DNA of 64,000 bases from a virus. Taxonomy: Duplodnaviria; Caudoviricetes. Positions within the stretch are counted from its first letter, which is position 1, and every line of letters starts with the position of its first letter. Positions 4,440 through 28,167 of the stretch are shown here, piece after piece. The notes under the pieces were generated by a model, which did no database searches, was not told the origin of the DNA, and was given only the letters and a program-made list of their open reading frames with translations. The stretch lies in the IMG/VR virus record IMGVR_UViG_3300028797_000093; one strand, given 5' to 3'. The position numbers were made by a program, and so were the translations under genes.

Positions 4440-6950
4440 TTATTCTATATCTTGTCTTGTAATATTGACACCTTTAAGCAACATAGCTCTATTAGAGTCA
4501 ATATATCTGATTAGTTCTATATCATTTTTAACATCTTCTATTGTATATCTAACCAATGTTCTAACAGAATCAGGTCTTAATGCAGACTCTCCTAACTGTT
4601 TAGGATCTTGTTCACCTAAGCCTTTATAACGAGTCAATCCGTTAGGAACACATGAGTTAAACATAGTCATGACTTCATAAATACTCTTCTGTTCACCATC
4701 TACTTTATAAAAGAGATATCTATTACTATTGATCAACTCAATGATATCAGAACAAGCAGAGATGAATCTATTGTTTAACAAGAAGTAATGATATTTACCA
4801 CTTTCTAATCCTTCAATAGTAATACATCCATCTTTATTTCTATATACTTTAATAAATCTAAACTCTTGTTCTATAACTTTCTTGAAAGTATTGAAATTAA
4901 AGTCTTTAGATACATTATATTTATATATTGTATTAGCACTCTTATTAATTATTGGAAATACATTATCATTAGTTCCAGCAGATATATTGTTGGAGAAGTT
5001 ATTGATAATATCATTATAGATAACTATTTTCTTTTGTTTATCAGTAAACTTGATATAAGGAGCAATTCTATATAGAATAGCTTCTAATAGATTACTGTTG
5101 ATAGCAAATGTATTGCCCACATAGTCCATCAAATAAAGATATTCTATATTCTTAACGAATAATCCAGATATCTCCACATTACTCATCTTATTATTTGTGA
5201 GAGTAGTTAGAGTATGTGTCTTAATAAAGATAGATTGAATATACTTAGTAAACTCAATCTTATCAGTAAAATACTTCATACCTTTACCTACTTTAAGACC
5301 ATAAAGTGGAGGTAAAGATCCATATACTCTACCATCTTGAATCAACTCAGGCATATACATCAAGAAGAATCTCAATAGCAGAGTTCTGATATGAGCACCA
5401 TCAGGATCAGCATCTGCCATAAAGATAATCTTCTCCCATTTTACTTTAGAGAGGTTAAAGTTCTTACCATAACCTCCACCTATAATAGTTATAATAGCTG
5501 CTACTTCTTCATTAGATAGAAAAGCTGCTTTTGATGTATTAAATGCATTTGGTAATTTACCTCTAATTGGATAAAGACCTTGACAAGTATAATCTCTACT
5601 ATTTTTAGCAGCCCCAAGAGCTGAATCACCTTCTACTATAATAAGCTCTAGATTCTTATTACCAGAAGGTTGTAAATACTTCTTGGGTTTACCAGTAAGA
5701 AGATTAGATTGATATTTAGTAGATAGTTTAACCTTTTCATTATCCTCTTTACTACGAACTTCAGCAATATCTTTAATAAACTTACAGATTTTCTGAAGAT
5801 CATTACTATTCCTCTTAGACCAATCATTAAGAGCTTTAATTGTAGTATTCTTAATAAAATCAATCATATCCCTATTAGACAAAATAGCCTTAGACTGACC
5901 AATAAAGATAGGATCAATATGAGCAGCTACTACTACAGCTTTCAATGCAGTCTTTACATCAGAATTTATAATACTAAGTTTCTTATTATTGGATAGATAG
6001 ATATTATTCATATAATCTCTAAAGAATAGAGATACGCCATCAGTAAATCCTTGTACATGAGTGCCTCCCATAGTACAAGTAAAGTTACTGAAAGAAGTTA
6101 TATCTTCATTACTTGATAGATCACTGGAATCCCAAGTAAAACAAATTTCACATTTAGTAGTACCATTATCTGCTTTATAATAAATAGGAGCTATAACAGG
6201 ACTCTTACACTTATTATAAAGACCTGTCATAATACCATCTTTATTTACAAGATTTTCATCAATGATTGTTTTACCTTTCTTATCAACAGCTTTAAAAGAA
6301 AGTTTAGTTCCAATATTAGTTAGAGGTAGAATCTTAATAACCATATCAAATAACTCTGCAGCTGTAAGTTCTACAGGTCCAAGAGCATCAAAAGATGGTC
6401 TAAGATATACAGTAGTTCCTTGTCTATTTTTTGGGCAATGAATATCCTGTTCTACAGGATTCTTATTCCATGGATATCCTTCAATAAATTCTACATGTTT
6501 AGCTTTTCCTAGAACATAAGAATCTACAATGAAGATAGAACTAAATGCAACAGCACATACAGCTCCTATACCATGAACACCAGATGAATATTCTCCTGGT
6601 TTCTTATTATAGTTTGATGAGCTATGCTCTGTATTATATACTTTAAGAATCTGTCCATGAGGAATTCCTCTACCATTATCCTCGATAGTACAGGAACAAT
6701 CTTTCTCATTATAGAATATCTTAATATAATTACATGGAGAATCTTCCTTAATAGCCTCATCGACAGCATTCTGGAAAATCTCTCTAAGACAAGTCATCCA
6801 ACCAGAAGTTCCAATACTACCAATATACATTCCAGGAAGCTTTCTAATAGCTTCTATAATAGAATCTATAGAGGTAATCTGATTTGCATAATTCTTAATA
6901 TTATCTATATAAGCTTCATTATTGGTTACATTCTTTTTATCTGTAGCCAT
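4440..6950 (-). CDS. gyrB: Type IIA topoisomerase / DNA gyrase subunit B
   Basis: GHKL ATPase motifs IRKLPGMYIG, EIFQNAVDE, DNGRGIP, GVHGIG; TOPRIM motifs VEGDSA, PIRGK, DADPDGAHI; C-terminal RYKGLGE. Confidence 0.95.
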   Translation of the reverse strand: MATDKKNVTNNEAYIDNIKNYANQITSIDSIIEAIRKLPGMYIGSIGTSGWMTCLREIFQNAVDEAIKEDSPCNYIKIFYNEKDCSCTIEDNGRGIPHGQILKVYNTEHSSSNYNKKPGEYSSGVHGIGAVCAVAFSSIFIVDSYVLGKAKHVEFIEGYPWNKNPVEQDIHCPKNRQGTTVYLRPSFDALGPVELTAAELFDMVIKILPLTNIGTKLSFKAVDKKGKTIIDENLVNKDGIMTGLYNKCKSPVIAPIYYKADNGTTKCEICFTWDSSDLSSNEDITSFSNFTCTMGGTHVQGFTDGVSLFFRDYMNNIYLSNNKKLSIINSDVKTALKAVVVAAHIDPIFIGQSKAILSNRDMIDFIKNTTIKALNDWSKRNSNDLQKICKFIKDIAEVRSKEDNEKVKLSTKYQSNLLTGKPKKYLQPSGNKNLELIIVEGDSALGAAKNSRDYTCQGLYPIRGKLPNAFNTSKAAFLSNEEVAAIITIIGGGYGKNFNLSKVKWEKIIFMADADPDGAHIRTLLLRFFLMYMPELIQDGRVYGSLPPLYGLKVGKGMKYFTDKIEFTKYIQSIFIKTHTLTTLTNNKMSNVEISGLFVKNIEYLYLMDYVGNTFAINSNLLEAILYRIAPYIKFTDKQKKIVIYNDIINNFSNNISAGTNDNVFPIINKSANTIYKYNVSKDFNFNTFKKVIEQEFRFIKVYRNKDGCITIEGLESGKYHYFLLNNRFISACSDIIELINSNRYLFYKVDGEQKSIYEVMTMFNSCVPNGLTRYKGLGEQDPKQLGESALRPDSVRTLVRYTIEDVKNDIELIRYIDSNRAMLLKGVNITRQDIE

Positions 6951-6956
6951 TAATAC

Positions 6957-7337
6957 TTACTCCTCTTTCTTTTCCATATATTCTTCCAATGCTTTTAATA
7001 TTGCCTCTTTACTATAAGCTCTATTATTTCTATTAACTTCAGTAAGATTAAAAATAGTATTAAGAGCAGTATCCATCTTATTGAATCTATACTTAAAAGG
7101 ATTTCCTTCAATATCAATATCAGACATAAATTCATCATAATGTCTGATCCATACTTTCTTTTCCCCATACAGAGCTTGGTATACTACACATTTAATAGGC
7201 TCATCGTCTGTAGTATATGCTTCTGGATAAATAATCATATATAAATACTTTTTATCAGCAAAATCTGCATCTGTATTGTAAAAACTCTTATAATGGGCTA
7301 CAATGTCACCTTGCTTAAATTGTGTAGGATTAGACAT
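6957..7337 (-). CDS. DUF1653-like protein
   Basis: HYK...Y.I...VVYQALYG...WIR.YDEFMS pattern; start moved to MSNPT (ATG at 7337) after GGAGG. Confidence 0.7.
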   Translation of the reverse strand: MSNPTQFKQGDIVAHYKSFYNTDADFADKKYLYMIIYPEAYTTDDEPIKCVVYQALYGEKKVWIRHYDEFMSDIDIEGNPFKYRFNKMDTALNTIFNLTEVNRNNRAYSKEAILKALEEYMEKKEE

Positions 7338-11805: not shown

Positions 11806-14800
11806 CTATTTTACCATCATTAATTCGCTAGAACCATATAATGCATAAACACCCTCACTAATATAGTTCCATTCGGTACCATAATTAGTTGTGGTTAGAT
11901 CAATTTCTTCATCTGGATTATAGATTGCACTCGGAACCCTAATATAAAGTCCAGAATTACAATCTTTAAACCAAGCATTATCTGCTACAGAACATTTGTC
12001 TATAGATGATACAAATCCAAATTCTACATATGACAAACTGGTACATCCACTGAAGATGAGATTACCAAGATTATTAATACCTATCATGGTACTATTAGGA
12101 GCCTGGAATGCAGCATACAATAGATCTACACAGTTTGCGAATGCACTAGATTCTATTTCATTAATATTATTTGGAATATAAATTTCAACCAATCCAGATC
12201 CAGCAAATGTATTTTCTTTTATGGTTGTAAGATCTACATTGGTAGGAATATGAATAGAAGTAAGGGAAGCGCAACCATAGAAAGCTTTCTCTCCAATATA
12301 AGTAATATTATCAGACAACTCAATATATTCAAGAGCTATACATCCACTAAAACATTCTAATCCAAGATTAGTTATGCTGTTAGGAAGTACAACACTAGTG
12401 AGACTTGTACAACCCTCAAACATAGTTTGAGAAATAGATGTTAAACTATTAGAAATTAATATACTTGCAAGAGATGTACATCCTCTAGCTACACTAATAC
12501 CAATAGCCATTACACTATTAGGAATGGTTAGACTAGTGAGATTGACACAATCTTTAAATGCCCCATCCCCAATAGTTAATACTCCCTTATTAATAGATAT
12601 AGTAGTAGCACTACATCCAGAGAATGAATAATCTCCTATATCATATATATTAATACCTAGACTGATACTATTGATACCGTCTAGATTTCTAAATGCATTA
12701 TCTGTTATACCTTTAACAGGATATACTATATTATTTTGTACATCAAAAATTGTATCTGGAATAGTGATAATACCACTTTCAGGAATAGCACTTAAACCAG
12801 ATCCATTAGTACCATCACCAATAAGATAATAAGTTCCGTCATTACTCAGTGTGTAATTCAACTCTGGAGTTGCATATAGTACACTGATAGGAACAGTGAT
12901 AGTATAATCAAAGTAATCACTGTCTCTATAATTAACAATTATTTCTGTAATGTCAGTAGTCAGTAATTCATTAGCATGATTATATGTATAATCAGTTAAG
13001 TATTCAGAACTACCGTCAGTCCAGTGAATCACAATAACCATACCGGCAGGATCAAATTTCTCTGTTGTATAATAGAGAGTTTTATTTGGTGGTTGAACCA
13101 TTTCCATATAAGATACTCTTTCACCATAAGCTGTAACAGTAAAGTTATCAGTAATACTAAAGATAACAACCTGCCCATTTATGTTATTGTAAGAGTATCC
13201 TCTATCTTTCTCTAAAATAACTCCTGTACTATCTATTCTGATAACAATATCTTCAGGAAGAATACTGCCATTTACAGAATAGAGATAGAAGCTATAATCA
13301 GACTCACCAGGATTAATTACAGTCCTGGCATTAGTAGTAAGATTATGAAGATTGTAGGTTCCAAAAATAACGTCAAATCTATAGTCTTGTAGTACAGGAT
13401 ATACATAAGTATTTGTTGTATCATTAGCATATCTTGTATTACTGGTAAGACCTTCAGATTTAGCAGCTATATTATCATGATAAGAGAATGTAGGAGCTGG
13501 ATTTTCATGTGTATTGTAAGGAACCAGAGTATTTTCAATATAGAATTCTCTAATTAATTTTACTGTAGCTTCAATGAATTTATTATTATTTGCAAATGAG
13601 TCGATATCATCCATATTAATAGCATCATAATCGAATACTGTCAGTTTTTGATTAGATGTTGTAGACATATCGTTATACAACCAATATACAAACTCAGACA
13701 TACCAGATCCATAGTTATTAAGAGTAAGACTATCATCTATATAATAACTTGTACCAGTACTTGCATATCTATGTCTGTATGCTAGTTTTTCGATAATATT
13801 CAGTATATCTTCTTTACTCAATCCGACTTTAATTATATATTTCATAAACTCATCATCCGTAATGGTTTCGAGTTCATTAGAATCTATATAAGTGTCAAAT
13901 CTGGACTGTAAAGTTGATGGAATATATTTTACAATAGAAATATTATTATAAGATATAGTTCCAGTATTATTAGGATCTCTAATGGCTAATCTATCAGGAC
14001 CGATTTTTTCAATCCAAGATTGAGGGATCTTCTTTCCATCAGAGAATACCATATACATCTCACTATTGAAAGTATAATGAAGATCTTTTTTAGCTTCATA
14101 AGATATATCAAATATAACTGTACCATCCTGATACTCTGCTCTTTGTTGAAACTCAACAGTTTGCATAGACATAGGAACAAAAAATACAGCTACATAAGCA
14201 CCTTGAGGAATATCAAAAGTAAAGAATATTTTTCTCTTATAATATGGAGCATTGTAATCATTAGGAATACTTACCCTATACTGATCAGATGATATATATC
14301 TATAATCAGTATGTGTATTACCAGATTTATTTGCTATAAATACTAAGTATCTAGAAGAATCATCACAATACTTAAACAAGTCATTGTTATAAATATCCTC
14401 TAGAACTATACTATTCATATCATTATCTATAGCACCATAATCTCCTGTAGGAGCATAATATTGAAATTGATGATACATAAATCTATTATTGGATACGATA
14501 GTAAGATCTGTATCATATAGACTACTATCTTCCAGTTCTATATTTATATATTCTTGATCAAGCACAAGCATAGAATAATCATTGGCTGTAATCCCATCAA
14601 TTAAATTAGGACCACTGATCAATTTCCAACTTGTACTATTATCAGTGCTAGGTTTAATCTCATTAAACAATGCTTCTTCAGCATCATATACGTCTCTAAT
14701 ACAGAGTAGAATTCTATAAGATGATGCATTGACACTTACACCATTTACATATCCATTATTATTCAAATAATAAAAGTCACCCTTAGCAGCAGCTGGTGTG

Positions 14801-17800
14801 TATATAGTCTTTGCCGCATTAGCACCAGGTTTTAAAATACCTCTATATTTGATTCTATTAATATTATATTTTACATTAAATTCCATAGTAATAGGATAAC
14901 CATTCTCTGATTCAGGATATGTAAACTCGTTATCCTGTCTCATTGCTGTAGTATATAGTCTCATATCCTCATTAAATATTGAAGGATCATATTTCTTATA
15001 TTTAACAGTATTAGAAAAACTTGTTGTATACTCACTGTTGTTTATATTATCAAAGAACATAAACTCTATAGGAGCTTTATTATTACTAAATCTATCAAGA
15101 GAAAGCTGATATCTAAAGATATTAGAATCAATATCACTAAATCTATCAAGGTTATTACCAATATAGAAATTCAAGAACATATTTTCAAAATCCAGCATAT
15201 AAGCATATCTGTTTTTAATAGGAATATCTATATAGTAACTTCCACTAATAAGTTTAGCAATATTATTAATAATATAATCTCTATCATATTCAGCAAATCT
15301 CAAATTGCTAGAGAAAGATTGCTTTAGATATTTATCAAAAATAGATTGGTTATTCAAGAGCATCGTACTGAGTTGATACTCATATAACTTATAATTCTTC
15401 AGTATATCAGAAATCTTATCATTATAAGACTCATATGTATCCATATAAGTATCTTCAACGTAAGACTCGTCTGTTTTAAATGCATCATAATAATTAAACT
15501 TATTAATCAATAGATTCAGTATATATCTAGGAATTCCTACTACGTTGCTATATTCAAAGATAATCTTATCATTACCCTTGATATTCCCAACATATTCAGA
15601 TATATCTGCTCCATAAGAATTGAGAATAATCTCTGCTGCTATTTCTTTATTGTAATAAGTACCATCAGGAAATTCCATACAGTTAACATTAGTTTCATAG
15701 ATTGTAACAAATACAGAATCCATCCATGAAGGTTCATTGGTTGTATTAATCTCTGTAATTATGTAATCTCCATCTACTGGAATAGATCCATTGATATCAA
15801 TACCATAATCACTCAGAGAAGATATTGCTTCATTCTGATAATACCATCCATTATCTGATCCGCTATATCTAAAGATATAAGTACCAGAACTACCATCAAA
15901 CTTCTCAGCAAGAAGATCTTCATTGTAAATCTTAGCATTTATAATACTGGTTTGAGTAATAGTAGCTGTTAAACCAATACCATAATCAACTAAATTTATA
16001 TCTTCTGCTGTTGGTTCTTCTGGGTATATATAACCATCATTAAAATCATCACTATTAGTAGGAACAGCTTTATACATGTTCCACTTGAAAACAGGAGGTT
16101 CATAATATACAATAATAGTATCTCCATTTACAGGAGATCCTTCGTATTCTATAGCAAATCCTTCAAGATTAGCATATTCAAAACTAATCTTATATACAAG
16201 ATCATCACTGATATATCTATAAACAGTTACTGTCCAGTTGTGAGAACTAGAATTGTATACAAATTCAATTCTACCAGGATATTCATGATAAGGATTTACA
16301 TTAGTATAGATAAGATAATTATCATATACTACATTAGTAACGCCATCTACAAGTTTAAGCTGTAGATAATCATTCATAACTGTCTTACAATTAATAGCAT
16401 CTGGATCATAAGTATCCTCAATCATCCCAGTAACAGTTTTGGTAAAGGTGATAGAAAGAGTATTACCAACACTACAGATACCATTAAATTTAATACCATA
16501 AACCTCTTCAACATCAACAGCAGAGCCACCAACTGTCCAAGTTGGATAGGTGCTATTTTTAATAGTTATAACAAAACTATCAGTACCACTATAAGTAATA
16601 CCACACTCAGTAAGAGTAGCATATGTGAGAGATTCATTTACAATCCACTGAGAGCTATCTGTATCATATTCAAATTGATAAGTTCCTACTCTATTACCAA
16701 ATGTGTTATAGAGAAGTTCTTCATCACTTACTGTTACTGTAGCTCCAGTATTTACATAAGTAAGAGATCCACCATTAGTACAAACAAAGTTTGTAATGAT
16801 AGAACCACTTGCTATATTATAATCAAAATTTGAAGTATATTTATTTACATTAATCTGAAGATCAACCTCAGAAAGGTTTACTGTGGTTGAAGAATTTGGA
16901 TATACAGAAATCTCTGTATTAGATAGCTGGACATTATTCATCCTGGCTTCATTTATTACAGTAGCATTCTTATCATAAGTAATAGTCATGATACCAGAAT
17001 AGTCCATATATTCTTTATCTAACTGATATACACCAGTCTTACGAACTACTTTCCCTTCAGTTGGATCATAGTATTCATTAGAATATTCTTTTACATAATA
17101 AGATGAAGTACCTACAGTGAAATAATAAGAATCATGCTCAGTATCAGGAAATACTTCTACTGGAATGAGTAGCTTACCATCACTTGCAGTATAGTCTGGA
17201 ATATTAGCTGCAACTGTTGCATATGTATAATCTGTATAAGCTGTATAGTTTATCTTAGCATTATACTGATAACCTTTAAATCCAACCTCTAGTCCAAGAG
17301 GAGAATCTACATCATCTTTCATTAGATCTGCTACAAACTTAGCAGATCTCATTTTAATACTATCAGGATCAATAGTAGACCCTGGTTTGAGTTCAGAGTC
17401 TATAGTAGTATAGCCATATCTATCATTTCTAGGATTATCTACAATATAAGTAAACTTATATTTACCAATAGCAGATCCTAATGTACTATTAACTTTATCT
17501 GTGAATGTATCATCATTAAAAGACATATTTTTTAGAGTAAGATTTTGTCCTACATAATAAGAATAAATAGAATTGAGAGTACCAAGATCTTTAATCTCAA
17601 AAGTTTGATCATTAATAACAGTCTGATTCATAATAGGGAGTTTACCCCTATTCTTATTATAAATATCATAATGATAAATTTTATTATAGAGATTAAAGAA
17701 AGTGCTTTTATTTACAGGAATTTGAGTTTTTGTATTATTAGTAGAATTATAATAATAACAGTTCAACTCATCAAAGTCATACTGATCCATATCCATAGAA

Positions 17801-19335
17801 TATCTAACCAGCAGAGATCCAGAGTTTAACTGTTCAGAAATATAGTTATCATTTATTACCAGTTTATTTGGATTAAGTTCATCGAACTCTAAGCATAGAA
17901 TACCCTCTTTAATAGTATATCCCAGCTGAGTAGCATCAGTTAGATCAAAACTATCAGAAGCTTTTGGATCAAATTCTGCATTAAGAATTCCATCTACAAC
18001 TCTAAGACCTATAGGTCTATTTTCATTAGTGTGAACTTCCTGTTCACCACTATCTACATAATTAACTCCATTGATAGCATAGAAGTTTACCAATGTATCT
18101 GTATAATTCTTTAACCAAGATTGAGAAACAAACTCTAGATTGGTTAAGCTAAGAGCAGCATTGTAATCAAAGAATATTTTAATATGCTGGTCATAGTATG
18201 TGGTACCATTACCAACATAGACTATATTATTGTAGATACGAATAGTATCAGTACAAAGAGTTAGATTAAGTGTATTATTCTCAGTTTTATTGAATACAAT
18301 AATATTTGCTGGGAATATTTTTCTCATTCTATTTAATTTATTGAAGTTAACAACAGTTCTACCAAGAGAACTATAATTTCTTGGATTTCCAGAGTTTACT
18401 TCACAATAGAAGAGATCAGATACTTGATCATACATATCTGTACTACTAACTTCTGCTATATTCTTAATATTAATAGCAGCTTCTATATAAGTAACTTTAG
18501 CATTATCAGATATATTGGAATAGGTCATATAAGATCTTCCATAAGAGTCAAAAGTGAAAATAGTCTTATTCTTATTTGCATTAGAATAATTTACATTCTC
18601 TTCATAGTTGACTTCAAAGGGAAGTATATAAAATACCGGATTGATTTCTCCTGTAATCAATCTAGTTCTTACTTTATCAATAAGATAAGAAGAAGAATTA
18701 TACTTAAGATCTTCCATATTGATATAGATATTAAATTCTTCATAAGAGATAGCAAAATAACATCTAGACCAAGGAATGAAAAATCCATCTACAAATACTA
18801 ATATTGGATAAATAATTTTATCATCAATAATAGCAGTCTTGAATGGGACTAAGTAATTATTAATAACCTCATCAGGTCTGATATAATATTTGTTTCCTAC
18901 AATAGTACCATCAGTACCATCACCTAAAAAATAATAGTAAATACTAGTACCATTATTCTCTACATTAAGGTATCTATTAACTCCAAGAGGTGTTCCATTA
19001 GAAAAAGATGGGGAAGAATAATATTTCTTTACCCCATCTTCATAAACACTATTGCCAGCTTTGACGAATGGCTTACAATAAGTAGAAGACTGCAACTTAT
19101 TGTAAGTATTCACTCTGAGAGGTATGCTAGACAATCTAAAGACTATATCTCGCTTACCATCTATATATTGTGTACCATTATCAGAGAAATAAGTACCAGA
19201 AGTTCCCAGATAAGTATCTAGTCTATAAGGAATTCTACTTTTCTGTACATCCTCTGTAATGCTGTCGGATTTAGTTATGACTTGTTTTACATTGGAGTTA
19301 AAGACCTCAAATTCTGTGGGTCTTCTAGGTTTCAT
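11806..19335 (-). CDS. Giant virion (baseplate/tail-associated) protein with Ig-like domain and C-terminal BspA-type leucine-rich repeats
   Basis: 2509 aa; internal repeats (W...L..YGI..xG....GDxI); PNKTLYYTTEKFDPAGM Ig-like motif; about 8 LRR_5-like units (I...AF.GC.SLTSI.IPNSV). Confidence 0.65.
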   Translation of the reverse strand: MKPRRPTEFEVFNSNVKQVITKSDSITEDVQKSRIPYRLDTYLGTSGTYFSDNGTQYIDGKRDIVFRLSSIPLRVNTYNKLQSSTYCKPFVKAGNSVYEDGVKKYYSSPSFSNGTPLGVNRYLNVENNGTSIYYYFLGDGTDGTIVGNKYYIRPDEVINNYLVPFKTAIIDDKIIYPILVFVDGFFIPWSRCYFAISYEEFNIYINMEDLKYNSSSYLIDKVRTRLITGEINPVFYILPFEVNYEENVNYSNANKNKTIFTFDSYGRSYMTYSNISDNAKVTYIEAAINIKNIAEVSSTDMYDQVSDLFYCEVNSGNPRNYSSLGRTVVNFNKLNRMRKIFPANIIVFNKTENNTLNLTLCTDTIRIYNNIVYVGNGTTYYDQHIKIFFDYNAALSLTNLEFVSQSWLKNYTDTLVNFYAINGVNYVDSGEQEVHTNENRPIGLRVVDGILNAEFDPKASDSFDLTDATQLGYTIKEGILCLEFDELNPNKLVINDNYISEQLNSGSLLVRYSMDMDQYDFDELNCYYYNSTNNTKTQIPVNKSTFFNLYNKIYHYDIYNKNRGKLPIMNQTVINDQTFEIKDLGTLNSIYSYYVGQNLTLKNMSFNDDTFTDKVNSTLGSAIGKYKFTYIVDNPRNDRYGYTTIDSELKPGSTIDPDSIKMRSAKFVADLMKDDVDSPLGLEVGFKGYQYNAKINYTAYTDYTYATVAANIPDYTASDGKLLIPVEVFPDTEHDSYYFTVGTSSYYVKEYSNEYYDPTEGKVVRKTGVYQLDKEYMDYSGIMTITYDKNATVINEARMNNVQLSNTEISVYPNSSTTVNLSEVDLQINVNKYTSNFDYNIASGSIITNFVCTNGGSLTYVNTGATVTVSDEELLYNTFGNRVGTYQFEYDTDSSQWIVNESLTYATLTECGITYSGTDSFVITIKNSTYPTWTVGGSAVDVEEVYGIKFNGICSVGNTLSITFTKTVTGMIEDTYDPDAINCKTVMNDYLQLKLVDGVTNVVYDNYLIYTNVNPYHEYPGRIEFVYNSSSHNWTVTVYRYISDDLVYKISFEYANLEGFAIEYEGSPVNGDTIIVYYEPPVFKWNMYKAVPTNSDDFNDGYIYPEEPTAEDINLVDYGIGLTATITQTSIINAKIYNEDLLAEKFDGSSGTYIFRYSGSDNGWYYQNEAISSLSDYGIDINGSIPVDGDYIITEINTTNEPSWMDSVFVTIYETNVNCMEFPDGTYYNKEIAAEIILNSYGADISEYVGNIKGNDKIIFEYSNVVGIPRYILNLLINKFNYYDAFKTDESYVEDTYMDTYESYNDKISDILKNYKLYEYQLSTMLLNNQSIFDKYLKQSFSSNLRFAEYDRDYIINNIAKLISGSYYIDIPIKNRYAYMLDFENMFLNFYIGNNLDRFSDIDSNIFRYQLSLDRFSNNKAPIEFMFFDNINNSEYTTSFSNTVKYKKYDPSIFNEDMRLYTTAMRQDNEFTYPESENGYPITMEFNVKYNINRIKYRGILKPGANAAKTIYTPAAAKGDFYYLNNNGYVNGVSVNASSYRILLCIRDVYDAEEALFNEIKPSTDNSTSWKLISGPNLIDGITANDYSMLVLDQEYINIELEDSSLYDTDLTIVSNNRFMYHQFQYYAPTGDYGAIDNDMNSIVLEDIYNNDLFKYCDDSSRYLVFIANKSGNTHTDYRYISSDQYRVSIPNDYNAPYYKRKIFFTFDIPQGAYVAVFFVPMSMQTVEFQQRAEYQDGTVIFDISYEAKKDLHYTFNSEMYMVFSDGKKIPQSWIEKIGPDRLAIRDPNNTGTISYNNISIVKYIPSTLQSRFDTYIDSNELETITDDEFMKYIIKVGLSKEDILNIIEKLAYRHRYASTGTSYYIDDSLTLNNYGSGMSEFVYWLYNDMSTTSNQKLTVFDYDAINMDDIDSFANNNKFIEATVKLIREFYIENTLVPYNTHENPAPTFSYHDNIAAKSEGLTSNTRYANDTTNTYVYPVLQDYRFDVIFGTYNLHNLTTNARTVINPGESDYSFYLYSVNGSILPEDIVIRIDSTGVILEKDRGYSYNNINGQVVIFSITDNFTVTAYGERVSYMEMVQPPNKTLYYTTEKFDPAGMVIVIHWTDGSSEYLTDYTYNHANELLTTDITEIIVNYRDSDYFDYTITVPISVLYATPELNYTLSNDGTYYLIGDGTNGSGLSAIPESGIITIPDTIFDVQNNIVYPVKGITDNAFRNLDGINSISLGINIYDIGDYSFSGCSATTISINKGVLTIGDGAFKDCVNLTSLTIPNSVMAIGISVARGCTSLASILISNSLTSISQTMFEGCTSLTSVVLPNSITNLGLECFSGCIALEYIELSDNITYIGEKAFYGCASLTSIHIPTNVDLTTIKENTFAGSGLVEIYIPNNINEIESSAFANCVDLLYAAFQAPNSTMIGINNLGNLIFSGCTSLSYVEFGFVSSIDKCSVADNAWFKDCNSGLYIRVPSAIYNPDEEIDLTTTNYGTEWNYISEGVYALYGSSELMMVK

Positions 19336-20273
19336 ACTACCTCACTTCCAATATCCAGAATTTCCTTGGCGAACATTACCATATTCTTACCAGTGATCTT
19401 CTCGATAGTCTTCTGATTATTAATATAACAACCAACATAAGCATCAAGAATCATAGTGGTAAAGCTTGGGAAATGTTCAAGAGCGAAAACGGTTCCTTCA
19501 CCATAGAGATACATCCACTTCTCTATGATAACGTCAAAGGAGATCTTAGAGATCTTCATTACATTGGCCAGATTCTCACAGAAGAACTTGATATTAACAA
19601 AAGCATCTTCATTGATCTGGAGTTCAATTATATCAGCTTCTCTGTTAGAAATTTCTGCAATCTTACAAGCTAGACCCTTAACACTTTCACTATTAGGATC
19701 TTTACCAGCAATATTGCACATGAAATACATAGAAGCCATATACATGCATTTATTTCTAGCTCCACTGATAGTAGAAATCTTGCACAGATAATCTACTACA
19801 TGAGTGAATAGTTTAGCAAAACAAATTGCTCCTTGTTCCATAATACTATGAGAATTAATGATAATAGAATCATTGATATAATAAATATAGTTTACCATAG
19901 CAGAAGCCAGGTAAGCAATAAGAATGTCAATATCTCTACACTTGATATTACCAGTATTCTTATCTACTGTAAAGATATCAGAGCAATCAATATAGATCTT
20001 CTTATCCTTCTTAGCACCATTCCTAACATCCTTAATACAATTAACTTTAAAAGGTTTAGGAAGTCTTTTACCCATAAGAAGAATAACCTTATCAGACATA
20101 AGAATTTTAGAAAGAGCAGAAGAGATTTGTCTCCTCTTTACATCATGAACAATCTCTTCAAACCCAGGATTTTTCTTATCTACAATTTCACCATTCATAG
20201 CAAAATCAAAAATTGCTTTCTCATATTCTCCATATTTAGAATAGAGATAAGTACCAGCAATTGTTTTAGACAT
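19332..20273 (-). CDS. Hypothetical, probable structural protein
   Basis: 313 aa, GGAGG RBS, 4-bp overlap with the giant gene, late motif at 20315-20326. Confidence 0.7.
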   Translation of the reverse strand: MSKTIAGTYLYSKYGEYEKAIFDFAMNGEIVDKKNPGFEEIVHDVKRRQISSALSKILMSDKVILLMGKRLPKPFKVNCIKDVRNGAKKDKKIYIDCSDIFTVDKNTGNIKCRDIDILIAYLASAMVNYIYYINDSIIINSHSIMEQGAICFAKLFTHVVDYLCKISTISGARNKCMYMASMYFMCNIAGKDPNSESVKGLACKIAEISNREADIIELQINEDAFVNIKFFCENLANVMKISKISFDVIIEKWMYLYGEGTVFALEHFPSFTTMILDAYVGCYINNQKTIEKITGKNMVMFAKEILDIGSEVV

Positions 20274-20389
20274 TTATATTATACCTCCACATCAGTAGAA
20301 TTTTTAAAGTATTTTACTACTATGTTGAACTAAACCCATAAGAATCAATATAAATAAAAGTAGGCCAATGAAGACCTACTTTTATTGAT

Positions 20390-21235
20390 TTACAAATGGA
20401 GACTACCACTACAACTTCCTGTACATCCTGGCCAGGCACAACCTTGTACACATGTAACTGAGCAATCTGCTGTACATGCAGATGAACATATTGCACAAAC
20501 TTGTGTACAACCTACACCACATGCTGTTCCACAATTTCCCATACATACATGTGCACAATCTGTTCCACAACCTGAAGAACATGATTTTGCACAATTTGTA
20601 GTACAAGTATCGTCACAATCGCTTAAACATGCAACAACACAAGTATTTGTACAATTTAATCTACAAGCTCCTGTACATTCATCTGCACAAGCATTTGCAC
20701 ATGCGTTTACACAACCACCCGTACAACTAGTACAAACATTACTACAAGTACCTGTGCAAGTTCCTGTACAACTAGCACAACCACCAGTACAACTAGTACA
20801 AGCATTAGTACAAGAACCTTGACAAGCACCTTGACAAGTGCCAGTACAAGTATCAAAGCATAATCCTGTACAAGAAGATTTACATCCAGTTTTACCAGCA
20901 AAATCATTTGCTGTTCCTTTTGTAAATCCTTCTAGAGTAGTTATTTCAGTTCCAACTTTAGTTAGTGCATTATAGTCTATTCTTTTATAATTTGGTAAGT
21001 TTGTATCTGATAATGTTTTAATATAAGATATTTGATTAACTAATTTTGTATAATGTTCTTGAATAGCTTTTCTATCTTTTAAAGGAGAAGTAGCAGCAAC
21101 GTATTTATATGTATCATTATCAGGTAGAGCGGCAACAGATCCTTTGCCATTCCTTCTTTTACATTCATTATCAATTCTTGTTTTTAAACCATTTATATCT
21201 GCAGCGGCTATTGTATTTCCCGATTTTAAAGCCAA
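20390..21235 (-). CDS. Cys-rich CxxxC-repeat protein, probable radical SAM modification target
   Basis: TTG start immediately after the rSAM stop; ~115 aa N-terminal domain then about 40 Cys spaced mostly CxxxC (CTGTCQGACQGSC...), as in the TIGR04114-type targets. Confidence 0.8.
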   Translation of the reverse strand: MALKSGNTIAAADINGLKTRIDNECKRRNGKGSVAALPDNDTYKYVAATSPLKDRKAIQEHYTKLVNQISYIKTLSDTNLPNYKRIDYNALTKVGTEITTLEGFTKGTANDFAGKTGCKSSCTGLCFDTCTGTCQGACQGSCTNACTSCTGGCASCTGTCTGTCSNVCTSCTGGCVNACANACADECTGACRLNCTNTCVVACLSDCDDTCTTNCAKSCSSGCGTDCAHVCMGNCGTACGVGCTQVCAICSSACTADCSVTCVQGCAWPGCTGSCSGSLHL

Positions 21236-21236
21236 C

Positions 21237-22853
21237 TTACATCACCTTTAGCCTTTCATATTCCTTTTTTCCTATAATGGGTAGAGCCCATACTTCAGGA
21301 ATATTTAGTTTAAATTCTTTATCACCTTTTTTTCTAAAGTAATAGTAAGTAGCCATTACTCTAGCTTTATGCATCTCACAAATAAAAGTAGCTCTTTTAT
21401 CTGGAGTTCCATATATCTCATAATTATATCCAGAGCACCAAGCACAACCAGATGCTATAGGGCAATAAAAACATAGATCTGTACTCTGAGTACGTCTATC
21501 AATCTTTGCCATACAATCAATTCTAGCACAGTGCTCTGGAGTACAATTAATACCATCCTTTAGATTTCCGATAATATATGGTTCTTGGTCCTTACCAATA
21601 GCATTTTCCATATATCTAATACAAGGATACATATCTCCTTTATAATCCATTGCCAGCATTAAACCAAGTCCACCACACCAGTTTTGTAATTCGTTCTCTG
21701 GTAATGGTTTTCCTATATAATTATCAAACATTGAGATGTAAATATCATTAAGATGATTATTCTCTTCTAACCAGTCTACTAAATTTTTCAATTCATTATA
21801 AAGAATAGTAGCGTGTTCTGGTTCCCAACCTTTTTCATATACACAATTCATCATAATATCTTTATAATCATTCTCTATTAAAGATTTAACTGCTTCTGAT
21901 AAATATATAATATTATCAGGTGAAAGAGTAACTTTACTTTCTATATTTTTACCTGTTTTAGCAGTATAATCTTTTACAGCTGCCATGGCTCTATCATATG
22001 TAGGATTACCAAACTTATCTATTCTACAAGAGTCATGTAGTGTTTTATTACCATCTATAGTCACACCATAACTAAGGTGATTTTTATGAAGTCTTACAAA
22101 TTCTTGGAATTCTGGTTCAAAGTAGAGTAGTCCATTCGAAGACATAGAAATCATAAAATTAATAGCCCATCTATGTTTCCTTTTAAAGACTTCTCCTATG
22201 AAATATTTACAAATCTTAGACATTACATCAGTACAGAGAAGAGGCTCTCCTCCTATAAATTCTAAAACACATCCTAAAGCTTTATTAGCATTTATATATG
22301 AACTAACTCTTTCATCAGAGTTAAGAATTAAATCAATAAATGTCTTAGCAGTTTCAAATGACATTTTATGATTGCCCTTATCATGTTGATAACAATAGGT
22401 ACATCTCATATTACAGTCATCTGTTAACTGAAGAGTGATGTTTCTACAAAAATTTCCACCTATTTTCATAGGTCCATTATTTTCATAATCGTCATATAGC
22501 ATTGCTAGTTGATTACTAAAATCTATAGGACGATTTCTTGCTGTAATTTTATATCCATTTAAGACAATACAACTAAATCCAAAATTTATATCCCAAGGAG
22601 CATCTTTTATTTGATCTTTATACATATCATATATTGATTCCATACAGAAATCAAATGATAGTATAGCTTCATTTAATTTATTTTCAAAATATTGATAGGA
22701 GTCATTCCATTCTTCATCTGTGAAGTTGGTAAAACTCCTATCAATAGTATTCATAAGATCTATCAGTCTATACTTTTCATAGTATAATCTATTTACATAA
22801 CTATTTAAAGATTCCGGTATGCTGATAATATTTGGATTATTAATGTCCACCAT
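21237..22853 (-). CDS. Radical SAM/SPASM peptide maturase, CXXX-repeat target type
   Basis: CNMRCTYC (CxxxCxxC), FIGGEPLL, SPASM cysteines CGG...YPC...CFYCPIASGCAWC...C; start set at MVDINN (22853) after AAAGGA. Confidence 0.88.
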   Translation of the reverse strand: MVDINNPNIISIPESLNSYVNRLYYEKYRLIDLMNTIDRSFTNFTDEEWNDSYQYFENKLNEAILSFDFCMESIYDMYKDQIKDAPWDINFGFSCIVLNGYKITARNRPIDFSNQLAMLYDDYENNGPMKIGGNFCRNITLQLTDDCNMRCTYCYQHDKGNHKMSFETAKTFIDLILNSDERVSSYINANKALGCVLEFIGGEPLLCTDVMSKICKYFIGEVFKRKHRWAINFMISMSSNGLLYFEPEFQEFVRLHKNHLSYGVTIDGNKTLHDSCRIDKFGNPTYDRAMAAVKDYTAKTGKNIESKVTLSPDNIIYLSEAVKSLIENDYKDIMMNCVYEKGWEPEHATILYNELKNLVDWLEENNHLNDIYISMFDNYIGKPLPENELQNWCGGLGLMLAMDYKGDMYPCIRYMENAIGKDQEPYIIGNLKDGINCTPEHCARIDCMAKIDRRTQSTDLCFYCPIASGCAWCSGYNYEIYGTPDKRATFICEMHKARVMATYYYFRKKGDKEFKLNIPEVWALPIIGKKEYERLKVM

Positions 22854-22876
22854 GAGTCCTTTATCCTTTCTATCTA

Positions 22877-23893
22877 TTAGGTAGTATAAGCAACAGGTAC
22901 ATGTACCCATTTATCGGTTGCATTTTTATAATACTTTAAACCACCTGTAGTGGCAGTTGTATCAATCCATAATATACTAGTATTTGTAGGAGCAGTAGTT
23001 CCAGCTTGCCAAACTGTACTAGGTCCCTGAGGACCAGTCGGACCTGTAGCACCTGTTGCACCTTTAGCACCTGTCGGACCTGTTGGACCAGTCGGACCTG
23101 TTGGACCAGTGGGACCTGTCGGACCTGTTGGACCAGTGGGACCAGTAGCACCCGTTGCACCTTTAGCACCTGCAGCGCCATTAGCACCCGCAGCACCAGT
23201 TGGACCTGTTGGACCTGTAGGACCAGTGGGACCAGTAGCACCCGTTGCACCTTTGGCACCTGTCGGACCTGTAGCTCCTTTAGGACCTTGAACACCTTGC
23301 TCACCAGCAGGACCTGTAGGGCCTACAGCAGGAACTTGGATTATTGTTGTAGTACCAGTAGGGCCTGGTATACCTTGAGGACCAGTTTGACCAGTAGGAC
23401 CCATCTTACCAGTAGAACCAATAGCTCCAGTAGGACCTTGTCTGCCCGTTGGACCTGTTGGGCCTTGTCTGCCCGTTGGACCTGTTGGACCTAAGTTACC
23501 TTGAGGACCTGTTGGACCTTTAGCTCCCATTGCTCCAGTAGCACCAGTAGGGCCTATTTTACCCGTTGCACCTGTTGGACCTAAGTTACCTTGAAAACCA
23601 GTAGGACCCATCATACCAGTAGGACCAATAGCTCCAGTAGGGCCATGAGCCCCTTGGGGACCAGTAGGACCCAATGAACCAGTCTGACCAGTAGGTCCAG
23701 GACCACCAGTAGGACCCAATGCACCAGTGGGTCCAGCAGGGCCTATAGGACCACTATCGAAAGGAACAATATTACCATTTCCATCAGAAGCATATATAGT
23801 TTTATTTTCATAATCTACTAATAATTCTCTTGGTACAGCTTTATCTCTATCCTTATATTCCAAAGGTCTAATAGGAAATCTTCCTGAAGACAT
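22877..23893 (-). CDS. Collagen-like (Gly-Pro-Thr-rich) fibre protein
   Basis: About 240 aa of G-X-Y repeats dominated by GPT/GAT with one interruption; C-terminal [12 protein letters not shown] motif typical of phage fibre/minor structural proteins; late motif at 23935-23946. Confidence 0.85.
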
Positions 23894-24018
23894 ATCTTAT
23901 ATTCACTCCTTATATAAACCAAATGAAGAGTATTTACTTGAATGTTAAAATAGTACATATGTATCTTAATCTATAAAAAATAAAGCAATGGGGATGGATT
24001 TTAACCCATCCCCAATAC

Positions 24019-24737: not shown

Positions 24738-25940
24738 TTATAGATAATCTTTATCTTCCATAACAGCAAGAATTTCTTCCACATTATTTTTTAATCTTTC
24801 ATCTGCTTTATTCATATTATAAGCTTTTACTGCATATACAAGAGCTTCCTTTTTATTTCCAATATAATAATATGCTAAGCTTAATAAATCATAAGGTTCA
24901 TCTAGCCAAGATCTATCTCTCTCAAGCCATGTATAATGTCTATAAGAATTTCTCAATCCTTGTTTTATATACCCTATAGCTTGTTCATGATTACCTTTTT
25001 CAATAAGTAGTTTAGCTAAATTAAGATAAGGTTCTCTATATGTAGGTTCTATTTCTATAGATTTTTCATAACTAATTATAGCTTCATAATTTTTATTCAT
25101 AATTCTATAGTTATCACCCATAAATAGATAGCAACTAGCTTCCTCTATAGAATTAGGTGAAAAATTTTCTAATACTTTTCTTAGAGTTTCATTACTTTTT
25201 CCATAATTACCAGTATAATTATATTCATGAGCTAAATAAATTAATCCATAATAATCGTCATCATATTCTTCTGCTCTTAATTCCAATAATGGTAGATAAC
25301 TACTTCTAGATTTATTAAGATCAGGATAATGATGTAATATTATAGAATCTCCATACTGTACTTCTGTACTAACATTATAAAATTCTGATTTAGTATCTTT
25401 ATCACATAAAAACTCATGAACAGGACATTTCCATATCCAATTCTTAGTATGAATTTTATTATACATAAATATTCTACCAGGAGTTCCATCAGCCATATGT
25501 GACCATATATAAGTATAACTTCCCCTTTGAGAAACTCCTTTTACCCATTTAGATATAAGAGTATTATACCACCCTGGTTCTAATAACTCATCAAGATCAG
25601 TACTAAAATATATATCAGTATCTCTAGGACACAACATCATAGCATCATTACGAGGAGTATCGAATCTCCATGGATTATACTTCTTTTGAGCTACTATATA
25701 TTTTCTTGGATTTTGTTTTGCATATTCTAATAGTTTCTCATAAGTACCATCTGTAGATCCAGTATCTAATATTACAACATAATCAGCTTCACTCATAGAT
25801 TCTATCCACTTATCTACGAATTGCAGCTCATTCTTACAAATAGCATATATAGATACTTTCAATTTATTATCTTCAATTAGTTTATCTTCATCTTCTCTTA
25901 TATCTTGCAATATAATATTATTCAAAGGTAGTTCAGCCAT
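24738..25940 (-). CDS. GT2-family glycosyltransferase with TPR repeats
   Basis: YAICKNE, LDTGSTDGT, WRFDTPRN, DLDE, VHE, HYPDLNKSRSSYLPLL; TPR-like C-terminus. Confidence 0.9.
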   Translation of the reverse strand: MAELPLNNIILQDIREDEDKLIEDNKLKVSIYAICKNELQFVDKWIESMSEADYVVILDTGSTDGTYEKLLEYAKQNPRKYIVAQKKYNPWRFDTPRNDAMMLCPRDTDIYFSTDLDELLEPGWYNTLISKWVKGVSQRGSYTYIWSHMADGTPGRIFMYNKIHTKNWIWKCPVHEFLCDKDTKSEFYNVSTEVQYGDSIILHHYPDLNKSRSSYLPLLELRAEEYDDDYYGLIYLAHEYNYTGNYGKSNETLRKVLENFSPNSIEEASCYLFMGDNYRIMNKNYEAIISYEKSIEIEPTYREPYLNLAKLLIEKGNHEQAIGYIKQGLRNSYRHYTWLERDRSWLDEPYDLLSLAYYYIGNKKEALVYAVKAYNMNKADERLKNNVEEILAVMEDKDYL

Positions 25941-25944
25941 ACTC

Positions 25945-28167
25945 TTACTCCTCTAATTCACATTTTGGAACCATTGCGATTCCTGTATTAATATATACAT
26001 CAATAGCATCACAATCAGGATATTTCTCTTTAGCATCTTTGAGTATTTGTTCTTTCAACTCTTCTGCATCAAAATGCTCTGTTAAGAGTTTTAGTAGATG
26101 TAATTCTACATAAGCATTATTATAATACCAATCATCTTCAATCCAACAATATGGTCTTTGATTGATGGTAAGAGCTGTTAGATACTCTTTTAGAGTATCA
26201 GTAAAATCTCCCTTAATTTCTGAAATATAAGCTCTTATACAGTGGATTCTTCTATAATCAAATCCAAGATCTAAAGAACTTGCTATATTAAAATAACTAC
26301 TTGCTACATCTATAGATCCTTCTTTATAACAATACTTACCAAGATTAATAGATACATTAGCTTGTAATTCTTTATCATTATAAGATGGATCATTATAAAA
26401 CTTATCTTCATTAAACATAGAGAAAGCTGTAAGATTAGCATCATATGCATCATGATCATTACCAGCTAATCTACTTTCCCATGCAAAGTATACACAGTCT
26501 AATATACTTCTTTCTTTTCGATAATATGCTCTTTTTGTATATTCATAATAATTTCTATTCTTCTCAATATCTTGATTGTGTATATATGAGATACTACTCA
26601 TTTTAAGATTCTTATTAGAATAATCTATATACTCATGTATATCTCTAACCCATTTAACTCTATTTAGATCAGCTACATGGATTTTATTATTACTATCACA
26701 ATTAGAGGTTCTATCTATATTTAGACTATGAGTAATCATACCATCATATGAAGGGTCCCACTCTTGTTGTATTTTCGCATACCAATCATATCTTAAATAT
26801 TCATCGAAGTCTACTGTTACACATACGTCTATATCAGGATATTTTTCTAGTATCATTTCTAGAGCATCTTGTCTGGCTTTACCAAATGAAAATTCTTCAT
26901 ATGTCTTAACTTCTACATCTACACCTAAATTTTTTAATTTCTCTACACTATCATCAGTAGATCCAGTATCTAGAATAAAAGTATAATCGGTTTGCTTAAC
27001 AGTAGCAAACCAAGTGTCTATGTTTTTACTTTCATTCTTACAAATAGCGTAAACTCCTACTTTATATTTTGATAACTCTTCTTTATATACATCTAAATTA
27101 TAAAGATAAGTTTCATTATCAGGAGAATAAATAGTTGCTACATACTCATGTAAATAAGCATTATAATAATCTTTTAGGGAAAATTCATTATAAGCTAATA
27201 GATCATATATATTACTTGGATTAGAGAAGAGATAAACATCTTCTCTCCAATCTTTTAGATTATATTTTATAGCCAATGCCTCTATACAATATTTAATAGA
27301 ATTATGATAATCATTCATATGATTATAGATAATAGCTATTAGATAATTTATTTTTCTTGTATTAGGTCCTACATTCTTAGCATCAAGAGCATACTTTAGA
27401 GCAGTTTCAGGTTCTCCTCTATCTTTATACTCTATAGCTATATTGATATTAGTCTGATATAAAACTTCTGGATGATCTGAGAAGTCACACTCTTCCAATC
27501 CTCTTAGAAAGACTTCATGAGCCTCTTCATTTCTATCATGAAATGATAACTCACAGCCATAATATATCATACACATAGGATCTGTTCTATTTTCTTGGTA
27601 TTCTAATTCTAATAGACCTAAATAGTTTGCTCTGGACTTAGTTCTATCAGGATGATGTTCTATAATAAACTTATCTGATACCACAGATTTTATTTGATTG
27701 GTTCCATTATAATGAAGTCCTTCATGTATAGGTCTCTCCCAATGCCAACCGGGATCATTGCCATGAACATTCTTTGATAGAAATCTTTTTATTTCATTTC
27801 CGTCATCATCATAATCTATAATATCACCAGAGATATCATTATATCCTTCTCTGAATAGTCTCTTTAACTCTTCATCCCATCCATCAACCCATATCTGATC
27901 AAAATCTGCTACACAACAAATATCAGCATCTTCAGGTATGTGTTTCATACTGAGATTTCTTGCTACATCAAATCTCCAAGGACTAATAATTCCTATATGA
28001 ACTTCCACTTTATCTAACTTAGATAATTTCTCTACACTATCATCAGTAGATCCAGTATCTAAGATTCTTATATAATCTGCTTTCTGTGCCCATTTATACC
28101 ATCTGTCTATGAGTTTACTCTCATTTTTACATATACCATATATACATATTTTCAAATCATCAGACAT
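25945..28167 (-). CDS. Tandem double GT2-TPR glycosyltransferase
   Basis: Two copies of ICKNE / LDTGSTDDSVEKL / DFD(Q/E) / IHE, each followed by a helical TPR-like region. Confidence 0.9.
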   Translation of the reverse strand: MSDDLKICIYGICKNESKLIDRWYKWAQKADYIRILDTGSTDDSVEKLSKLDKVEVHIGIISPWRFDVARNLSMKHIPEDADICCVADFDQIWVDGWDEELKRLFREGYNDISGDIIDYDDDGNEIKRFLSKNVHGNDPGWHWERPIHEGLHYNGTNQIKSVVSDKFIIEHHPDRTKSRANYLGLLELEYQENRTDPMCMIYYGCELSFHDRNEEAHEVFLRGLEECDFSDHPEVLYQTNINIAIEYKDRGEPETALKYALDAKNVGPNTRKINYLIAIIYNHMNDYHNSIKYCIEALAIKYNLKDWREDVYLFSNPSNIYDLLAYNEFSLKDYYNAYLHEYVATIYSPDNETYLYNLDVYKEELSKYKVGVYAICKNESKNIDTWFATVKQTDYTFILDTGSTDDSVEKLKNLGVDVEVKTYEEFSFGKARQDALEMILEKYPDIDVCVTVDFDEYLRYDWYAKIQQEWDPSYDGMITHSLNIDRTSNCDSNNKIHVADLNRVKWVRDIHEYIDYSNKNLKMSSISYIHNQDIEKNRNYYEYTKRAYYRKERSILDCVYFAWESRLAGNDHDAYDANLTAFSMFNEDKFYNDPSYNDKELQANVSINLGKYCYKEGSIDVASSYFNIASSLDLGFDYRRIHCIRAYISEIKGDFTDTLKEYLTALTINQRPYCWIEDDWYYNNAYVELHLLKLLTEHFDAEELKEQILKDAKEKYPDCDAIDVYINTGIAMVPKCELEE

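Follow-up and report, generated by a model that had tools for sequence, protein, structure and literature searches.

The 64,000-nucleotide (nt) stretch of the IMG/VR record IMGVR_UViG_3300028797_000093 (the window, within which all positions are counted) carries three co-oriented genes, coding for a collagen-like fibre protein, a radical S-adenosylmethionine (rSAM)/SPASM enzyme and a protein with a long ladder of regularly spaced cysteines. This module is best explained as a phage-borne protein-maturation kit tied to the fibre, in which the rSAM enzyme would cross-link the ladder and the product would be attached to the fibre in the virion, a reading to which we lean with moderate confidence. 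Its parts differ in strength: it is very probable that the enzyme acts on the ladder protein, and somewhat likely, from the gene context, that the ladder product is present in the virion, while a thioether as the modification, suggested by analogy with related enzymes, is about an even call. The families concerned have entries in NCBIfam, Pfam and PHROGs; the module is of a known but uncharacterised kind, the function of which we infer. The features of the locus are as follows.

23989..24014, minus strand: terminator-like hairpin (11-bp stem with 6 GC pairs, then a T-run), which closes the upstream gene and precedes the three-gene unit.
22877..23893, minus strand: collagen-like fibre protein of 338 amino acids (aa) (Pfam Collagen, 1.6e-35; many PHROG tail-fibre families).
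21237..22853, minus strand: rSAM/SPASM protein of 538 aa (TIGR04115, 412.5 bits).
22554..22853, minus strand: N-terminal domain of about 100 aa of the rSAM protein, a putative TIGR04116-like fused partner (hhalign and AlphaFold2 (AF2) model).
21237..22553, minus strand: linker and radical SAM/SPASM core, residues ~101-538 and the stop codon (TIGR04115; the match spans residues 156-524 of the long open reading frame (ORF)).
20390..21235, minus strand: cysteine-ladder protein of 281 aa (ORF with a TTG start).
20888..21235, minus strand: conserved helical N-terminal domain (N-domain) of the ladder protein, residues 1-116 (AF2 confidence (pLDDT), identity in near relatives, motifs).
20390..20887, minus strand: cysteine ladder, residues 117-281 and the stop codon (41 Cys; weak TIGR04114 and TIGR04117 matches, phrog_6085 match).
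20353..20386, minus strand: terminator-like hairpin directly 3' of the ladder gene (14-bp stem, then a T-run), kept in the relative L056.

The enzyme and the ladder protein are very probably paired because a single base separates the rSAM stop codon (21237-21239) from the TTG start of the ladder gene (21235), because hairpins bracket the unit (24014-23989 and 20386-20353, enclosing exactly the collagen-like fibre, enzyme and ladder genes), and because an rSAM gene accompanies the ladder in nearly all related loci. An alignment-based scan of IMG/VR with the ladder protein yielded 43 viral loci, 39 of which have an rSAM gene within 3 kb, and the module was also found in six genome contigs of Clostridia, with an rSAM gene in all six. 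The same scan with the single ladder sequence was empty, and blastn of the locus against the phage collection gave no match. A sequence-only reading of the window had described such a gene pair with its 1-bp spacing downstream of a collagen fibre gene, and this arrangement was confirmed, coordinates included. The late promoter motif that it had also reported could not be confirmed: scanning for sigma-70 promoters tells little at this locus, and nothing usable came from a search for motifs; terminator-like hairpins are seen instead. The sequence AAGGTGA lies 7 nt upstream of the ladder-gene TTG, a start codon kept in L056 and L057. The longest ORF of the rSAM gene runs from 21237 to 22910 on the minus strand, and its start is placed at the ATG at 22853 because the corresponding MVDYNNPNII/MENIY is where nine fused relatives begin, this ATG lies behind a GGA-rich ribosome-binding site, and the longer ORF from 22910, rejected here, would overlap the collagen gene.

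By its profile score the enzyme is a member of TIGR04115, the maturase family that the sequence-only reading had named: the score exceeds the cut-off of 350 bits (E 1.9e-123) and covers model positions 2-359 of 359. The families that score next highest, each of them thioether-forming, are PapB (NF047865, 161 bits, cut-off 340), the SCIFF maturase (TIGR03974, 80.7 bits, cut-off 425) and QhpD (80 bits, far below the family cut-off). The CX3CX2C motif (C147/C151/C154) and the SPASM cysteine set (C393, C411, C461, C464, C470, C473 and C492) are invariant in 29 homologues, and the best solved-structure match of the AF2 model (pLDDT 88.8) is the thioether-forming CteB (5WHY/5WGG, E 7e-18). PapB/freyrasin and CteB/SCIFF resemble the window enzyme in having a SPASM domain with two auxiliary clusters, and their substrates carry repeated Cys motifs. 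However, those enzymes act on peptides of about 40-50 aa, the short leader of which is bound by an N-terminal RRE domain (the recognition element of peptides that are made on ribosomes and modified after translation, RiPPs), whereas the putative substrate in the window is a protein of 281 aa. As a precedent for the maturation of a protein, as opposed to RiPP formation, QhpD with QhpC, the gamma subunit of quinohemoprotein amine dehydrogenase, comes closest. QhpD is an rSAM/SPASM enzyme installing several intramolecular Cys thioether bonds in this small Cys-rich subunit, which is not a secreted natural product. QhpC differs from the ladder protein in that it has few cross-links, is part of a periplasmic enzyme, and is neither repetitive nor viral. 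In several phage loci the TIGR04115-type rSAM gene holds an intein (Hint/Intein_splicing; L018:11688-14030, L025:17081-19042, L039:11424-13814), two of them with LAGLIDADG; in L018 and L025, the sequences of which were read, the intein sits exactly at the CX3CX2C motif and the third Cys appears to be its +1 residue.

A different chemistry has also been considered, in which the Cys residues bind metal or iron-sulfur clusters, as a metallothionein-like or wire-like rod, and the rSAM enzyme loads the metal or makes another change such as Cys oxidation. About 25% Cys with small neighbouring residues would suit such a carrier. The bacterial relatives use twin-arginine translocation (Tat) with their own TatA/TatC genes, a route typical of cofactor-bearing or pre-folded proteins; moreover, anSME is among the best structural matches, and metal-binding fibre repeats are known, for example at the tip of T4 gp37. 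Nevertheless, this explanation is very unlikely. C-x3-C with Gly/Ser/Thr is not known as an iron-sulfur or metallothionein motif, a radical enzyme would be superfluous for metal binding, and the close relatives of the enzyme that have been characterised all form C-S or C-C cross-links; Tat export could be accounted for just as well by a protein that its cross-links had pre-folded.

The putative substrate has 42 Cys, of which 41 lie in residues 118-275, within the last 164 residues of the protein. Among the 40 Cys-Cys gaps of the ladder, 35 are four residues (CxxxC), four are three and one is five, and family-wide 84% of 2535 gaps are four residues and 14% three, a periodicity far from chance. 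The repeat unit is C-[TS]-G-x. The ladder opens with a GCKSSCTGLC junction that is invariant family-wide and forms the most conserved columns of the family, and on this conservation it is a candidate recognition or nucleation site. In the alignment of 115 family members of comparable length (154-492 aa), the window's ladder is the longest. The sequence-only reading had placed the target with TIGR04114, a placement that holds for the kind of protein, as judged by the repeat, the match to phrog_6085 (1.9e-7) and the annotation of homologues with PF27846 (tSAM_targ_Cxxx_rpt), with a weak score on the model itself (14.6 bits, cut-off 20); TIGR04117 also scores below its cut-off (13.6 bits, cut-off 50). 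PF27846 is found on many of the 380 homologues, including those 58-63% identical to the ladder protein, and on its Atlas clusters; the Atlas clusters of ladder homologues are 67-89% viral.

The first ~115 residues form an N-domain of three helices predicted with high confidence (pLDDT 90-96), with the motifs LKxR[IV]xxExxRR, GSV, EHYxK and LE. A fold search with this domain gave the Lon N-domain as its best match at Z 6.4, below the meaningful level for helical bundles, and no fold was assigned; a search of BFVD returned only other uncharacterised phage ladder proteins. A phmmer search with the N-domain alone against 1.8 billion representatives gave nine matches, all of them short ladder proteins, which is uninformative on other architectures. 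Longer relatives are found with the ladder: in 158 proteins of 495-2000 aa, ladders precede, separate or follow domains of the Laminin_G_3, CBM_4_9, ALK/LTK glycine-rich, Flg_new or Peptidase_G2 kinds. By these fusions with lectin, CBM, glycine-rich and fibre-chaperone domains, the ladder behaves like a structural building block of large, adhesin-like proteins and unlike the core of a leader-dependent peptide. Some family members have unusual arrangements. In P0141, known from one contig, a Peptidase_G2-type tail fibre is joined directly to a ladder protein, and in P0110, known from two contigs, a ladder protein is joined to the C-terminal SPASM part of an rSAM enzyme; these are either true fusions or gene calls that were frameshifted or merged. 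A 141-kb viral contig (L025:9932-16342) has five consecutive ladder ORFs (100-968 aa) before the rSAM gene, and the 968-aa ORF contains two ladders, an internal N-domain and a C-terminal domain of ~400 aa without Cys that belongs to no known family.

That the substrate is a protein and not a peptide is further argued because the N-domain is folded, because family scans found no protease, exporter or signal peptide in the three-gene unit, and because longer fused relatives exist. The product could alternatively be a cargo RiPP or bacteriocin, with the N-domain as a large leader and the modified Cys-rich tail freed at lysis or from lysogens against competing bacteria or phages, unrelated to the particle. 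A conserved N-part with a hypervariable C-part does resemble a leader with its core, the TIGR04115 family is filed as 'peptide maturase', in bacteria the relatives are Cys-rich proteins that stand alone and are exported by a Tat signal, and morons often occupy the ends of tail operons. This alternative is considered unlikely. No protease, exporter or immunity gene occurs in the unit or in the recurring module, and the neighbours of the unit are fibre, glycosyltransferase and virion protein genes, with no peptidase or ABC transporter among them. The short leader and the leader protease or transporter of classical RiPP clusters are not found, the N-part being a confidently folded bundle of 116 residues. 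Moreover, the terminators enclose the unit together with the fibre gene, ladders are also embedded in proteins of 500-2000 aa that carry lectin, CBM or glycine-rich domains, and the module stays beside fibre genes across unrelated phage types. The sequence-only reading had held that the substrate N-terminus looks less like a RiPP leader than like a virion attachment segment; the first half agrees with the folded N-domain of the AF2 model, the fibre context and the adhesin-type fusions.

The first ~136 residues of the enzyme have no direct NCBIfam match, and hmmscan with TIGR04116 was empty even at E 10. In related loci a free gene of ~95 aa always lies just upstream of the rSAM gene, and one free phage partner matches TIGR04116 at E 0.058 only. 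A partner alignment (A2) was made of free phage partners and one bona fide TIGR04116 protein (104.6 bits) of a bacterial locus, and hhalign of A2 against the profile of the N-extension gave 87.7% (E 3.4e-6) with 92 colinear columns over the full length. The AF2 model of the domain is a strand-helix-helix-hairpin (pLDDT 85-96), an order that differs from that of RRE domains. Its hairpin falls at a WDINFxF / YxFDFD motif common with the free partners, and the predicted secondary structure agrees. Because of the profile-profile comparison and the position of the partner gene in about 40 loci, it is supported that the enzyme N-terminus is a fused distant homologue of the small partner, of the TIGR04116 kind. 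The fusion suggested by the sequence-only reading is thereby retained as distant homology, not as membership under the cut-off set by the curators. A predicted complex between the N-extension of the rSAM enzyme (residues 1-140) and the ladder protein (residues 1-150) scored 0.00, which gives no verdict and was counted neither way.

Taken together, the following route can be proposed. The three genes would be transcribed as one unit, with the ladder gene translationally coupled to the enzyme gene. In the anaerobic cytoplasm of the host, the rSAM/SPASM enzyme would recognise the ladder protein, with the fused TIGR04116-like domain probably as the docking element, and would work processively along the C-x-x-x repeats, most likely making many intramolecular cross-links from Cys sulfur to carbon (thioethers), as in PapB, CteB and QhpD. 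The product would be a rod or knob resistant to proteases and reductants, in which the non-Cys residues are free to vary, and the conserved helical N-domain would most likely anchor this rod to the virion fibre, or to the fibre during assembly. The genome contigs all belong to Clostridia, among them Ruminococcus, a cultured isolate of Gemmiger formicilis, and Faecalibacterium. The hosts named so far are strict anaerobes, which fits an O2-sensitive enzyme and the value of non-reducible cross-links. Besides thioether or metal chemistry and presence in the virion, late expression of the unit is something that we infer.

A structural role in the particle is suggested by the genomic context. In related loci, tape measure, baseplate hub, wedge, baseplate and tail fibre genes lie upstream of the module, the usual order of which is tail fibre, ladder protein, an optional protein of ~200 aa, small partner, rSAM and often another tail fibre. 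Many loci have this ~200-aa accessory gene between ladder and partner; the window has none that corresponds to it. A gene of the fibre cluster ends at most 120 nt from the ladder gene in 28 of the 43 loci, and phages of unrelated types, ranging from ones with P2/Mu-like tail operons to a jumbo phage, have kept the module next to fibre genes. Two fibre types are seen there, one ending in a Peptidase_G2 intramolecular-chaperone domain and the other in a C-terminal element of ~40 residues. The collagen-like protein of the window, which matches the tail-fibre family phrog_5073 at 4e-53, has such a fibre-end element, GTTAPxNTxxLWIDT...LKYYxxxxxWVxVPxAY, in its last ~45 residues (about 22880-23015), and in at least 10 other loci the gene that adjoins the module also ends in it. 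The element may be a knob for docking or trimerisation. In L002, L007, L009, L032, L037-L039, L043 and L044, the element (GTTAPxxTxLLWIDT...LKYYNGSxWVxV) ends otherwise unrelated proteins of 88-338 aa, the genes of which are a few genes from the ladder module and mostly directly before it.

The position of the ladder gene directly after a fibre gene, and the combination of a conserved attachment part with a variable part, are shared with T2/S16 gp38, P2 gpG and Mu U, to which the ladder protein has no detectable homology. Gp38 has a glycine-rich repeat scaffold bearing variable loops, and the ALK/LTK glycine-rich domains of some long ladder proteins are comparable to it. No fibre adhesin is known to require a radical SAM enzyme or regularly spaced cysteines. 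The likeness in position also raises the question of an assembly factor: the ladder protein, in the tail-fibre chaperone slot of P2/Mu-type phages, would help the fibre to fold or trimerise and then be discarded or left at the tip, with the rSAM modification making it functional. The order of baseplate J-like, I-like, fibre and ladder genes mirrors P2 J-I-H-G, a conserved N-domain with a variable C-part is reminiscent of tail-fibre assembly (Tfa) proteins, and in P0141 the ladder comes after the cleaved Peptidase_G2 chaperone domain. Such a role is improbable, as the ladder protein resembles known Tfa proteins in neither sequence nor fold, 20-40 modified Cys and an iron-sulfur enzyme of its own are hardly what a chaperone would require, and the large lectin/CBM fusions point to a surface-exposed part.

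Several observations weigh against a cross-linked ladder displayed on the fibre. Cargo genes, too, classically lie where a tail operon ends, and position alone is no proof of a structural role. Two unrelated fibre C-termini accompany the ladder protein, so there is no evident single, conserved place on the fibre for it to dock. In P0141, the one case of a ladder fused to a fibre, it comes after the auto-cleaved chaperone domain and would then leave the mature fibre. The ladder tail has a pLDDT below 50 and its fold is not modelled. As for the chemistry, the second-best structural match of the enzyme is anSME, which oxidises Cys/Ser without cross-linking, and thioether formation is extrapolated from relatives (PapB, the SCIFF maturase, QhpD) for which the enzyme scores under their own cut-offs. 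Finally, full-text searches, with subscription journals outside their coverage, found neither a demonstrated reaction for any TIGR04115 member nor literature on TIGR04115 chemistry or a phage CXXX/rSAM fibre module.

The module is native to the phage lineage and not a recent insertion, because its synteny is kept in the metagenome contigs L056 and L057 and its GC content matches that of the window (0.30 for the rSAM gene, 0.32 for the window). A recent bacterial insertion, which the sequence-only reading had named as a finding that would speak against its interpretation, is rejected on the same two grounds. In L056 and L057, where the rSAM enzyme is 90% and 85% identical to that of the window, the full order is kept: GT2-TPR, GT2-TPR, orf215, collagen, rSAM, ladder, gp28-like and a 2509-aa protein. 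The gene that follows the unit in the window is a virion protein gene.

19332..20273, minus strand: downstream virion structural protein, phiKZ gp28-like, given as context (phrog_21032 'virion structural protein', 1.6e-18; synteny in L056 and L057).

Its product also has a weak match to PF25614 (PhiKZ_VTX), below the cut-off, and the gene is followed by that of the 2509-aa protein, a leucine-rich repeat protein (11806-19335). The long ORFs of the window (GC ~0.32) are nearly all on the minus strand, and the window is part of a phiKZ-like jumbo phage: it encodes a piece of a split beta' subunit of a multisubunit RNA polymerase, as well as topoisomerase II subunits, RtcB and the gp28-like virion protein. 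Divergence from L056 is sharply localised: the gp28-like neighbour (19332-20273) is near-identical (99.7%) and the ladder N-domain is 92% identical, whereas the whole ladder protein is 69% identical over 235 aligned residues and its tail (20390-20887) roughly 45% by our estimate, with internal rearrangement through duplication of repeats. Family-wide, N-domains are 67-88% identical among near relatives and non-Cys tail residues 20-33%.

The module can be compared with the bacterial CXXX-repeat system, which is defined bioinformatically and comprises the TIGR04115 maturase, the TIGR04114/04117/04118 targets (Pfam PF27846), the TIGR04116 small partner and the TIGR04119 second maturase. Like that system, the window has an enzyme that passes TIGR04115, a target with the C-x-x-x repeat and a TIGR04116-like partner, fused here. 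The bacterial example L001 differs in its Tat-signal target, TIGR04119 protein and TatA/TatC; the Tat-signal target and TIGR04119 are also found in the bacterial-type loci L063-L080. In contrast, the phage form is without TIGR04119 and Tat, has a folded helical domain of ~115 aa before the ladder and sits among fibre genes; in the window lineage, moreover, the gene order is reversed and the partner is fused to the enzyme. In tblastn with the L001 protein, TIGR04119 adjoins the rSAM gene in the bacterial-type loci L063-L080, and none was found in the window or in other phage-type loci except for two borderline matches, one in L018 inside the rSAM gene itself and one in L055 inside a stretch matching the window's rSAM. 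L001 (MT837480.1, 6.8 kb) is labelled 'Bacteriophage sp.' and encodes a Tat-signal Cys-repeat protein, TIGR04115, TIGR04119, TIGR04116, TatA and TatC, with no phage genes; from this gene content the record may be a mis-binned bacterial CXXX system. Its dedicated Tat genes suggest that the bacterial target is exported already folded or modified. What the window adds to these systems is the partner-enzyme fusion, the reversed gene order, a collagen-type fibre partner in a jumbo phage, a terminator-bounded operon, the longest ladder and the contrast of a near-identical neighbour with a diverged tail.

A wider proposal is made tentatively, and with some doubt: phages of strict anaerobes might build part of their host-recognition apparatus by radical chemistry, the rSAM enzyme stapling a hypervariable ladder into a non-reducible, protease-proof rod displayed on the fibre. 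If true, a structural protein of a virus would here be seen for the first time to receive covalent cross-links from an enzyme, and the ladder would be a fast-evolving receptor-binding or shielding surface for reducing environments where disulfides fail. It would extend radical SAM 'RiPP' chemistry beyond small antibiotics to the maturation of virion structural proteins, and such maturation would be widespread in gut and rumen phages of Clostridia, up to jumbo phages. The uncharacterised CXXX-repeat system (TIGR04114-04119) would gain its first biological context, a recurrent unannotated gene set in tail-fibre modules would be explained, and in anaerobic ecosystems host range or particle stability would have a new determinant that is hypervariable. 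Cultivable test systems are offered by the L048 prophage of a cultured Gemmiger formicilis strain (DFI.6.10), which carries a copy of the module, and by Salmonella phage SPN3US, with ladder ORFs beside two rSAM genes.

In SPN3US (L051, NC_027402.1), three unannotated C-x-x-x ladder ORFs (6067-6459, 6470-6874 and 6890-7096) lie between a virion structural protein gene and the two rSAM genes, and RefSeq puts another frame (gp100) over the second ORF. In the window, two GT2-TPR glycosyltransferase genes (phrog_13126; one with an internal duplication) lie at 24738-28167 on the minus strand, just upstream of the Thr-rich collagen-like fibre gene and syntenic in L056 and L057, a proximity that hints at glycosylation of the fibre.

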